A stretch of 64,000 nucleotides of DNA, from assembly GCF_054482525.1 (NCBI RefSeq), contig NZ_CM137006.1; one strand, given 5' to 3'. Below the pieces are notes generated by a model. The model did no database searches. It was given only the letters and a program-made list of their open reading frames with translations, and was not told the DNA's origin. Of the stretch, positions 2,859-5,071 are shown one piece after another. Position 1 is the stretch's first letter. Each line of letters starts with the position of its first letter. Both the position numbers and the translations under genes were made by a program.

Positions 2859-3527
2859 TCAAACAGGTTGAATTAACTCCGCGCCCTGGTTTTTAACATT
2901 ACCCACCGCGCGCGATACCGGGTGCCAGGTGAACTGGTTTGCTGGCACACAGCCACTGGTAGCAATTTCTGAGGCTTCTTTACCGCCAACCTCTTGCCGC
3001 ATCCATTCCCGTGCAGCTTCTGGCGACAGTACCAGCGGGCGGCGGTCATGAATGTCGACCAGACCCTGGTCTGCTGCTGCAGTGACAATTAAAAATCCTT
3101 CGGCTTCGTCACCACGCTCAAACGGTGTGCTACCTATCGCGGCCATAAAAACTGGTTGTTCGTCAGCACGATAGATAAAATAAGGCTGCTTTTTGTCGCC
3201 TTCTTTTTTCCACTCAAACCAGCCATCGGCAAAACAGATTGCCCGACCATGTTGCCAGAGCGGTTTAAACATACGACTGGTTGCCGCAGTTTCTACGCGG
3301 GCGTTAATCAGCGGCGGTTTATCCCACCATCCGGGAGCATATCCCCAGAAAACCGGATCCAGATGAAGGTGTTCATCACGTTCACTGAGCAGAAGAACTT
3401 TGGTTCCCGGCGCGACGTTGTATCTGCCAATGGGTTCGGGATCGTAGGGAATATCGCGTTCAACATCTTCCGCGAGAAGCGCAAGGTAATCTTCACGCGT
3501 TTGGGATTGGGCAAAGCGTCCACACAT
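2859..3527 (-). CDS. yedK: SOS-response associated peptidase (SRAP/abasic-site crosslinking protein) YedK
   Basis: 222-aa ORF starting MCGRFAQ (catalytic Cys2 hallmark of SRAP family). Confidence 0.9.
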   Translation of the reverse strand: MCGRFAQSQTREDYLALLAEDVERDIPYDPEPIGRYNVAPGTKVLLLSERDEHLHLDPVFWGYAPGWWDKPPLINARVETAATSRMFKPLWQHGRAICFADGWFEWKKEGDKKQPYFIYRADEQPVFMAAIGSTPFERGDEAEGFLIVTAAADQGLVDIHDRRPLVLSPEAAREWMRQEVGGKEASEIATSGCVPANQFTWHPVSRAVGNVKNQGAELIQPV

Positions 3528-3635
3528 AGCAACCTCCTGAGATCATACTGAAAAGAATAGGAGAGGGGGCGGGTAAAATCTATGTGATACAGAGGTAACG
3601 ATGTTCCCGCTGTGGGCCACAGCGGGAATGAGGGA

Positions 3636-3869
3636 TTACTTCTGAATTAAATAACGAATGGTCGGCCCGTCTTGCTGAATATCCAGCACCGTATAGCCGT
3701 GATTACGCGCATCCAGTGGAATATTATTGATCGACTGCGGACAGTCGCTCACAACTTCCAGGATCTCACCTTTTTTTAATTGCGGCATCGCCTCAAGGGT
3801 TGCGACTGCCGGATAAGGGCAGGGTTCACCCACCATATCAAGGCGGTAATCAGGAACGATATTTTTCAT
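3636..3869 (-). CDS. yedF: TusA-like sulfurtransferase family protein YedF
   Basis: 77-aa ORF with CPYP motif (GEPCPYPAV) typical of TusA fold; overlaps yedE start by 4 nt. Confidence 0.85.
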   Translation of the reverse strand: MKNIVPDYRLDMVGEPCPYPAVATLEAMPQLKKGEILEVVSDCPQSINNIPLDARNHGYTVLDIQQDGPTIRYLIQK

Positions 3870-5071
3870 GCGATCTCCTTAGCAGTCTGCGGTGCCGCAC
3901 GGCGGAAGAAGCGTTTTTCCCAGCCGATAATCAACATCAGCGCAGCAAACAGCAGCAAATATGTCACCAGCAGGCCACCCATCGGACCAAAGGTTTTCAG
4001 TAGGTTGATTTTGTCCCAGTCGGTGGCCAGCGCCGGAGCGAAATCATCCCAGTAATACGCCAGAATCGTTGAGCCGATCACGTTGCCCAGACCAACCCAC
4101 CAGTAGTGCACCTGGCCTTCTACCGCGCGGTACATCCAGCCGGTTTCGCAGCCGCCTGCCAGCACGATGCCAAAACCAAACAGTAAACCACCAATTACCG
4201 CGTTTGGTCCCGCCCACATGATTTTGGGTTCAACGCCTAACTGTACGTAACTGAAGATCCCGATGGCACTTACCGCCATACCGATAATGATTGCTTTCGC
4301 CATGTGGGTACGTCCGGTGATCCACATATCGCGGAACGCCGAAGTAAAGCAGATTTGCGCACGTTCAATCAGTAAACCAAAGCCGACGCCAAACAGCATT
4401 GCCAACCCCAGTTTTGGTTGGTTCATCGCCGTCAGCAGTGCCCAGCCCAGCATGCCGAAAAAGACCAGCATCCCGAGACGAAAACGACGCCGCGCCTGAT
4501 CCGGTTTTTGCGTCAGCGGTGAGGCGGCAGAAACTTTCTGCATTTTCACGGGAATACGGAAGATGGGCAGTAGGGTAAAGCGCGCGCCAAACCATGAACC
4601 AATGGCAGTGGCGATGGCAAAGAACCAGGCATGCAGCGAGAACTGAGGAATGCCGGTAAAGAACGCCGCCAGGTTACAGCCCATTGCCAGACGCGCGCCA
4701 AAACCGGCGATAATGCCGCCAATGATGGCCTGCATAATGCGGATACGGCTGCGCGGCATGCGTAGTTTGACATTGTTGGCCCACAGCGCTGCAGCAAAGC
4801 AGCCGCCAAACATACCGAGGATCATCATGCCGTCGATGCGGGTTAATGGCGATCCTTCCAGATGGATAATTTTAAAATAACCCCACTCTTCAGCATGGAC
4901 GCCGAACAGCTGCAGGAGCTGACCGCCCCAACGGGTAAATTCACCCGTGACAGCCCAAAAGGTGCCAGTGATGCCAAAATAGTAAGTGGAGAGAATACCC
5001 GCCGCGATGACCGCAGGGATGGGTGCCCAGAATTTAATCAACCAGGCGAGTTTGAATTGCTGCCATGACAT
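3866..5071 (-). CDS. yedE: YedE/YeeE family inner-membrane transporter (selenium/thiosulfate-related)
   Basis: 401-aa hydrophobic ORF, synteny with yedF. Confidence 0.85.
   Translation of the reverse strand: MSWQQFKLAWLIKFWAPIPAVIAAGILSTYYFGITGTFWAVTGEFTRWGGQLLQLFGVHAEEWGYFKIIHLEGSPLTRIDGMMILGMFGGCFAAALWANNVKLRMPRSRIRIMQAIIGGIIAGFGARLAMGCNLAAFFTGIPQFSLHAWFFAIATAIGSWFGARFTLLPIFRIPVKMQKVSAASPLTQKPDQARRRFRLGMLVFFGMLGWALLTAMNQPKLGLAMLFGVGFGLLIERAQICFTSAFRDMWITGRTHMAKAIIIGMAVSAIGIFSYVQLGVEPKIMWAGPNAVIGGLLFGFGIVLAGGCETGWMYRAVEGQVHYWWVGLGNVIGSTILAYYWDDFAPALATDWDKINLLKTFGPMGGLLVTYLLLFAALMLIIGWEKRFFRRAAPQTAKEIA

Follow-up and report, generated by a model that had tools for sequence, protein, structure and literature searches.

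The DNA analysed here is a stretch of 64,000 nucleotides (the window) from contig NZ_CM137006.1 of the NCBI RefSeq assembly GCF_054482525.1, and all coordinates are positions in that whole stretch. The interval of interest, 2859-5071, carries yedK, yedF and yedE, which the listing of open reading frames (ORFs) for positions 1-9000 gives as three minus-strand ORFs encoding proteins of 222, 77 and 401 amino acids (aa), respectively (Table 1). The analysis leads us to conclude that the interval very probably consists of two unrelated, known core units that lie side by side: yedK, encoding a cross-linker of abasic sites, and yedE-yedF, encoding a YeeE-like relay for a chalcogen, probably selenium.

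All three are already known and annotated core genes of Escherichia coli, and their description contains nothing new. In identical DNA from E. coli PCN033, the RefSeq annotation reads yedL, yedK, yedF, yedE and yedD. A megablast search with positions 2700-5300 found the block in 5,377 of 5,426 complete E. coli genomes, 5,372 of them with at least 80% coverage; the identity is at least 95% in every matching genome and 100% in PCN033 and others. This bears out an earlier note, made from the sequence alone, which had described the three as conserved E. coli genes beside a variable islet. The variability of the islet is equally apparent, as the neighbouring leucine-rich repeat (LRR) gene is present over at least 80% of its length in only 1530 of the 5426 genomes, at 84-100% identity. 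The domain assignments of that note also withstood a search with hidden Markov models, in which Pfam recovered SRAP, TusA and Sulf_transp, all far above their gathering scores.

Table 1. Features of the yedK-yedF-yedE interval, in order of position (TM, transmembrane helix; AF2, AlphaFold2 model; A-B, unit A preceding unit B).
Feature	Position	Strand	Description
yedK	2859-3527	minus	SRAP-family protein, 222 aa, starts MCGRF; predicted to cross-link abasic sites in single-stranded DNA (ssDNA)
Shine-Dalgarno AGGAGG for yedK	3533-3538	minus	7 nt upstream of the yedK ATG; read from the sequence
Hairpin	3604-3628	minus	perfect 11-bp GC-rich stem closed by a 3-nt loop; lies 8 nt past the yedF stop; no U tract
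yedF	3636-3869	minus	single-domain TusA-like protein, 77 aa; GEPCPYP motif, CPxP Cys17 and Cys43
ATGA overlap, yedE stop / yedF start	3866-3869	minus	translational coupling; read from the sequence
yedE	3866-5071	minus	10-TM membrane protein, YedE/FdhT subfamily, 401 aa
Shine-Dalgarno AAGGAG for yedF	3875-3880	minus	6 nt upstream from the yedF ATG; lies in yedE, near its 3' end
YedE TM10 (aa 362-390)	3902-3988	minus	equivalent to central helix H7 of YeeE-order proteins, ends in conserved W-E-x-R; from AF2 and alignment
YedE unit A (aa 219-340)	4052-4417	minus	homologous to the N-terminal half of YeeE/TsuA; Cys241, Cys308, R247, R315, E318
YedE linker TM (aa 199-215)	4427-4477	minus	equivalent to N-terminal TM0 of 10-TM A-B relatives; from hydropathy, AF2 helix 189-216 and rotated alignment
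YedE unit B (aa 1-165)	4577-5071	minus	homologous to the C-terminal half of YeeE/TsuA; carries Cys132
Sigma-70-like match TTCAGA-17-TATTAT (9/12)	5161-5189	minus	candidate yedEF promoter, sole such match upstream of yedE

Families of YedE and YedF and the order of the YedE units

The assignment of YedE as a YeeE/YedE-type membrane protein is confirmed by two models. The Pfam family Sulf_transp (PF04143) matches in two stretches, with an E-value of 9.2e-50 and 170.4 bits against a cut-off of 27, and the YedE/FdhT model NF033796 scores 620.3 bits against a cut-off of 350, with residues 10-390 lying collinearly on profile positions 2-385 of 387. Against the model of that subfamily, which also includes FdhT from Campylobacter, YedE is a full-length collinear match without any difference. 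It fails both models for the thiosulfate transporter TsuA (81.3 against 645 bits for NF041049 and 121.1 against 400 bits for NF052577). Matches to the seleno_YedE model TIGR04112 are weak among YedE homologues (29-65 bits against 200), and none was reported for E. coli YedE itself. YeeE from Spirochaeta thermophila (StYeeE, PDB 6LEO) is a distant match to YedE, with a phmmer E-value of 4e-27.

YedF was described in the earlier note as a TusA-like sulfur-carrier domain with a CPxP motif, and the models are in agreement: the TusA domain (PF01206) is found with an E-value of 9e-21 and 73.9 bits against a cut-off of 28.6, the motif reads C17-P-Y-P, and the NCBIfam equivalog for YedF, NF008242, scores 156.8 bits against a cut-off of 79. 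The sequence is 100% identical to that of the nuclear magnetic resonance structure PDB 1JE3. With TusA and YeeD (TsuB), YedF shares the TusA fold and the CPxP cysteine, and its second cysteine, Cys43, corresponds to Cys39 in E. coli YeeD; yet it falls below the cut-offs of TsuB (43.1 against 147.5 bits) and of the TusA equivalogs. It also differs from the two-domain YedF (TIGR03527, Lin et al. 2015), as it lacks the DsrE-like CGxC domain and is 77 rather than approximately 194 aa long. The name YedF therefore covers two architectures, and arguments made for the TIGR03527 form do not automatically carry over to the other.

A model of YedE was predicted with AlphaFold2 (AF2) on an alignment of 21 homologues, with a mean predicted local distance difference test score (pLDDT) of 90.3 and a predicted template-modelling score (pTM) of 0.88. 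It contains ten long helices and four short helices that directly follow re-entrant loops, and shows the pattern of the hourglass fold, namely four elements of transmembrane (TM) helix, loop, short helix and TM helix. When the PDB was searched with this model using Foldseek, only YeeE chains were significant, with a probability of 1.0, TM-scores of 0.47-0.56 and a root-mean-square deviation of about 7 Å. Among relatives of YedE, structures have been solved solely for YeeE and for its complex with the TusA-like YeeD. YedE thereby resembles YeeE/TsuA (S. thermophila 6LEO and 8J4C; E. coli TsuA) in superfamily (PF04143, COG2391) and fold, and also in having a TusA-like partner encoded by an adjacent gene.

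The residues of functional interest are retained as well. In StYeeE, Cys22, Cys91 and Cys293 line the transport pathway (PMC7449682), and phmmer and blastp alignments place Cys241, Cys308 and Cys132 of YedE, respectively, at these positions. Of the four StYeeE residues that contact YeeD, Arg28, Arg98, Glu101 and Glu261 (PMC11073785), the first three align with Arg247, Arg315 and Glu318 of YedE. Each of the three YedE cysteines is found either in all of the 21 homologues or in at least 90% of them, and Arg247 and Arg315 are invariant or nearly so; Glu318 is the exception.

These correspondences run crosswise, in that the C-terminal half of YedE pairs with its YeeE relatives' N-terminal half and vice versa. 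With blastp, YedE residues 225-324 match E. coli TsuA residues 9-110 with 85.5 bits and 41% identity over 102 aa, and YedE residues 83-160 match TsuA residues 254-330 with 42 bits, whereas no more than 26.6 and 31.2 bits are obtained for the half pairs in the same order. A crosswise pairing of the halves is likewise seen in the phmmer alignment to StYeeE. An exhaustive HMMER search of 1.84 billion representative sequences yielded 1,515 relatives of YedE, many of which, at about 400 aa and 31-38% identity, match in two stretches with their order swapped. Among the 32 full-length representatives in the best 150 matches, 14 have the unit order of E. coli YedE and 18 that of YeeE, and close homologues (30-38% identity) commonly have either order. 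When the closest relative with unit A before unit B, P0053, was cut at residue 232 and the two pieces were rejoined in reverse, its two high-scoring segment pairs (HSPs) of 107 and 104 bits merged into one of 196 bits, which covers YedE residues 39-399 with an E-value of 6e-63. Sequences rotated in this manner align with YedE from end to end, and the alignment takes in the linker helix as well as the last helix and the W-W-E-x-R motif. An internal repeat as the source of a spurious swapped alignment was considered, and it is excluded by the half-against-half scores and by the rotation in silico.

Taken together, these comparisons raise the possibility that the proteins of the YedE/FdhT family, E. 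coli YedE among them, are exact circular permutants (B-TM0-A-TM10) of relatives with the order TM0-A-H7-B or A-H7-B, a tentative reading that we hold with slightly more doubt than confidence. The break point of the permutation lies in the cytoplasmic loop between the W-W-E-x-R and P-W-P motifs. Relative to YeeE, which has nine TM helices in the order A-H7-B, YedE would be rearranged to B-TM-A-TM with ten TM helices and both termini predicted to be cytoplasmic; hydropathy and charge fit this model, with each unit keeping its orientation. The family models are divided in the same way, since NF033796 and TIGR04112 represent the B-A order and the TsuA models the A-B order. The Foldseek TM-scores of 0.47-0.56 are consistent with a sequential aligner applied to a permuted pair, although an alignment that is itself sequential cannot alone prove a permutation. 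In a crude neighbour-joining tree, some B-A proteins lie among A-B ones, a hint that permutation may have occurred more than once, but the tree is unreliable and too weak to decide whether the B-A order has a single origin.

The split transporters PmpA/PmpB and YedE1/YedE2 provide a further comparison, as their halves correspond to unit B (PmpA) and unit A (PmpB) (PMC11582611, PMC10812762). YedE differs from them in that one chain holds both units together with two additional TM helices, which are also kept in the 10-TM A-B proteins. PmpB and PmpA have been equated with the N- and C-terminal halves of YeeE, and an origin by fusion has been proposed, with no mention of the reversed order in YedE (PMC11582611). 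No report of a circular permutation in YedE was found in the searchable literature, the coverage of which is incomplete, such that prior knowledge is possible. The permutation may thus be unreported, and it is the only element of this locus with some novelty, albeit as a structural and evolutionary footnote. If it is indeed unreported, it represents a natural experiment on how a channel built from inverted repeats tolerates a change in the order of its halves. It is also of consequence for models of YedE based on YeeE-YeeD, because the partner-docking unit is C-terminal in YedE, and modelling or mutagenesis on the basis of YeeE requires that residues be mapped crosswise (Cys132 to Cys293, Cys241 to Cys22, and Cys308 to Cys91).

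Proposed mechanism and probable substrate of YedE-YedF

By analogy with the complex of YeeE and YeeD (TsuA-TsuB), YedE and YedF would form a pair of a channel-like protein with ten TM helices and a cytoplasmic TusA-like carrier. A small chalcogen anion would pass the hourglass centre of YedE along Cys132, Cys308 and Cys241, and would then be taken over by Cys17 in the CPxP motif of YedF, which would be docked on the cytoplasmic face of unit A at Arg247, Arg315 and Glu318. The cargo would most likely be a selenium species, in keeping with the anaerobic need for selenoprotein formate dehydrogenases and selenouridine. Such a mechanism, in which a small chalcogen anion is relayed as in YeeE, appears to be the best supported for YedE-YedF, and it can apply to YedE because both units keep their orientation in the membrane. 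What is carried, and in which direction, is our inference.

As to the substrate, the earlier note had proposed selenium or thiosulfate uptake. This proposal can be narrowed: the selenium-linked models, YedE/FdhT and YedF, pass, and the thiosulfate models, TsuA and TsuB, fail. By this pattern in NCBIfam, YedE and YedF fall into the naming branch linked to selenium rather than into that of thiosulfate, which is to be attributed to their paralogues YeeE and YeeD (TsuA and TsuB). Furthermore, the YedE family co-occurs with SelD (PMC5322559), and in Methanococcus maripaludis the yedE transcript rises by 5.3 log2-fold upon selenium starvation (PMC11097638).

Several points nevertheless weigh against selenium as the cargo. 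The link is indirect, as it rests on co-occurrence, expression and anaerobic co-regulation. Deletion of yedE in M. maripaludis produced no clear selenium phenotype, and according to the same authors a selenium-specific transporter is not known in any organism (PMC11097638). In this window, yedEF is not adjacent to any selenium gene. Finally, YedF fails the TIGR03527 model, with 22.7 bits against 110 and only profile positions 1-59 matched; with E. coli YedF being short and of one domain, the case for selenium from comparative genomics was in part made for another protein.

The pair might instead handle a sulfur species, such as thiosulfate, zero-valent sulfur or a persulfide, and serve as a second, anaerobic import route parallel to TsuA-TsuB. 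Sulfur is the cargo of all members of the wider family that have been characterised by experiment: thiosulfate for YeeE/TsuA (PMC7449682), zero-valent sulfur for YedE1E2 (PMC10812762) and imported sulfur for SoxT (PMC11582611). In addition, the gene for P0053 adjoins genes for TusA and a rhodanese, and the E. coli genes co-regulated with yedEF include that of the sulfurtransferase YnjE (PMC7888660). However, a cysPUWA yeeE double deletion fails to grow on thiosulfate despite the presence of yedEF (PMC7449682), showing that YedEF is no replacement for TsuA, at least aerobically. As YedE also falls far below both TsuA models and its family co-occurs with SelD (PMC5322559), we consider a sulfur cargo unlikely, if still worth serious attention.

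It is improbable, in our estimation, that YedE is not an importer at all but serves to export or detoxify selenium or sulfur that is in excess. Export was raised by Lin et al. as "an attractive hypothesis" (PMC5322559), and a permuted order of the units could in principle accompany altered gating. Yet, judging by the positive-inside charges and by the conservation of the residues for partner docking, each unit of YedE is oriented as in the importer YeeE, and it is selenium starvation, not excess, that induces yedE in M. maripaludis (PMC11097638). Import of a selenium species by a YeeE-like relay is thus the preferred reading, and yedEF from E. coli would offer a tractable test case for selenium-specific transport.

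The yedEF operon and its boundary with yedK

The stop codon of yedE and the start codon of yedF share an ATGA, and the Shine-Dalgarno sequence of yedF lies within yedE. This is the classical arrangement of translational coupling, as the earlier note had recognised. In a study of E. coli transcriptomes by independent-component analysis (ICA), yedEF was treated as an operon, in an iModulon that is more active anaerobically (PMC7888660). The association of the two genes also extends beyond E. coli, since a TusA gene adjoins the YedE homologue in all four contexts from other organisms, either upstream or downstream. A gene for an SRAP protein was found near the YedE homologue in neither of the two distinct contexts with long enough flanks.

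On the other side of yedF, the spacer to yedK contains a strong hairpin (Table 1), which as RNA folds with -20.5 kcal/mol (z = -4.9); not one of 200 shuffled sequences folds as well. It was not called in a scan for terminators, because it lacks a T run; that scan returned three terminator-like sites, a count not above the expectation from shuffles. A scan of positions 1-9000 against Rfam, with E-values up to 1, gave no match, and thus no riboswitch, small RNA or element resembling a selenocysteine insertion sequence (SECIS). The hairpin likely ends the yedEF transcript on its 3' side or stabilises it, and likely marks the boundary with yedK. Its precise role could be that of a terminator, an RNA stabiliser or a processing site.

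With the hairpin as separator, and with YedE homologues elsewhere adjoining TusA rather than SRAP genes, yedK and yedEF look like neighbours with no functional link, and their adjacency looks incidental. Two findings weigh against the overall reading. As the hairpin has no U tract, read-through into yedK is possible; and the promoter scan gave one site upstream of yedE where 3.5 were expected in shuffled sequences, so that the candidate promoter is not significant on its own. Together with the shared strand and the yedF-yedK gap of only 108 bp, the missing U tract could indicate that yedK, yedF and yedE form one module, for instance of sulfur or selenium chemistry and DNA damage tolerance, that is co-transcribed from the yedE promoter. 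Such a module is very improbable: a strong Shine-Dalgarno sequence precedes yedK itself, the stability of the hairpin is high (z = -4.9), in the contexts retrieved from beyond E. coli the adjacency of yedK and yedE is not kept, YedK and YedEF are not known to share any biochemistry, and in the ICA study yedE and yedF form a group that lacks yedK (PMC7888660). On the grounds of gene context and the hairpin, the three genes were ruled out as a cooperating tricistronic module.

The genes that flank YedE homologues in the other organisms were also recorded. TusA-family genes adjoin homologues of both unit orders, at positions 1401-2040 of context L003, 5347-5523 of L004, 2210-2452 of L006 and 946-1269 of L008. 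A rhodanese gene follows in L003, and in L006 and L007 the next genes encode a PAS histidine kinase, a response regulator and a porin.

YedK, its regulation and the flanking genes

YedK is matched by the SRAP family over its residues 1-211, which cover profile positions 1-214 of 214 (PF02586, E-value 3.6e-52, 177.4 bits against a cut-off of 27.1), and by the NCBIfam subfamily model PRK09951 with 489.7 bits against a cut-off of 349. The structures 6KCQ, 6KBS, 6NUA and 2ICU are matched over all 222 residues with E-values of about 1e-152. Compared with YedK from E. coli K-12 (6KBS, 6NUA, 2ICU and 8D2M), 214 of the 222 residues are identical (approximately 96%); the SRAP domain of human HMCES is also close, YedK being the orthologue of SRAP/HMCES in bacteria. 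The eight substitutions are conservative (I22V, F116Y, G123E, I126V, I180V, S181G, A190T and S200T), and, judged from the sequence, they would amount to an allelic difference only, none of them being at a functional position. All 13 of the functional residues considered, whether catalytic or in contact with DNA, are kept: Cys2, Arg4, Pro40, Asn75, Arg77, Trp103, Glu105, Trp106, Ile147, Thr149, His160, Arg162 and Pro164. The reading of the MCGRF start as that of an SRAP protein with a catalytic Cys2 was therefore correct, with Cys2 directly after Met1 and with Asn75, Glu105 and His160 present as well.

In the K-12 protein, Cys2 attacks the abasic site and a thiazolidine linkage forms, with stabilisation by Glu105 and His160 (PMC6821365). 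Since cross-linking was demonstrated for a protein of approximately 96% identity (PMC6821365), the YedK encoded here presumably acts in the same manner. Following removal of Met1, the N-terminal Cys2 would attack the ring-opened abasic site in ssDNA to form a thiazolidine DNA-protein cross-link, assisted by Glu105, His160 and Asn75. This cross-link would shield the lesion against cleavage and error-prone bypass.

The earlier note also called for a search for a LexA box upstream of yedK, and this search was negative: positions 2200-5700 contain no CTGT-N8-ACAG with at most one mismatch. Against the 20-mer LexA consensus, no site upstream of yedK has fewer than 10 mismatches in 20, and the only CTG-N10-CAG within 2200-5700 is GC-rich and lies within the yedK coding sequence. 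At the scale of the 64-kb window, CTGT-N8-ACAG with at most one mismatch has 13 matches, compared with 18.7 expected by chance. A palindrome in the spacer between yedF and yedK, CTGTGGCCCACAG, was considered as a LexA box and rejected, as its spacing is wrong and it is the stem of the hairpin at 3604-3628. Two sites elsewhere in the window may be mentioned: the sole perfect CTGT-N8-ACAG, at 35595-35610 (CTGTCATGGTCAACAG), the centre of which is not AT-rich, and the best match to the 20-mer consensus, at 10701-10720 (TGCATTATATATCGACAGTA), which has five mismatches and only one good half-site.

It thus appears that yedK bears no sequence sign of SOS control here, and that it is apparently expressed on its own, without LexA control. 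That yedK is a LexA-controlled SOS gene, as the name of a family called after its operon associations with SOS genes in other bacteria would have it (PMC6821365), is scarcely credible given the absence of a LexA box from 2200-5700 and the 10 mismatches in the closest upstream match. The phrase "SOS response-associated" is a family name, and the negative LexA result warns against taking this label as a statement on regulation in E. coli.

The possibility that yedK belongs to a defence islet was likewise considered and then dropped, because a PADLOC scan for defence systems found no match in YedK, YedL or the LRR protein. In an experimental study, deletion of yedK had no effect on Brig1 immunity (PMC11078745).

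Beyond yedE, the flank consists of yedD, amyA and fliT/S/D. On the yedK side, a gene for a GNAT acetyltransferase (yedL, 2269-2748, minus strand) is followed by the LRR/DUF5503 gene (992-2131, plus strand), such that yedL is located between the variable LRR islet and yedK. YedL has no specific NCBIfam equivalog, its best match being ArsN2 with 25 bits against a cut-off of 125. The LRR gene is intact and encodes a protein of 379 aa with DUF5503 and LRR regions, which resembles effectors of type III secretion systems (the LRR region of SspH2/SlrP); in O157:H7 the gene is annotated as EspR4, at 92.8% identity. It is adjoined by a fragment of an integrase pseudogene (668-808, minus strand).

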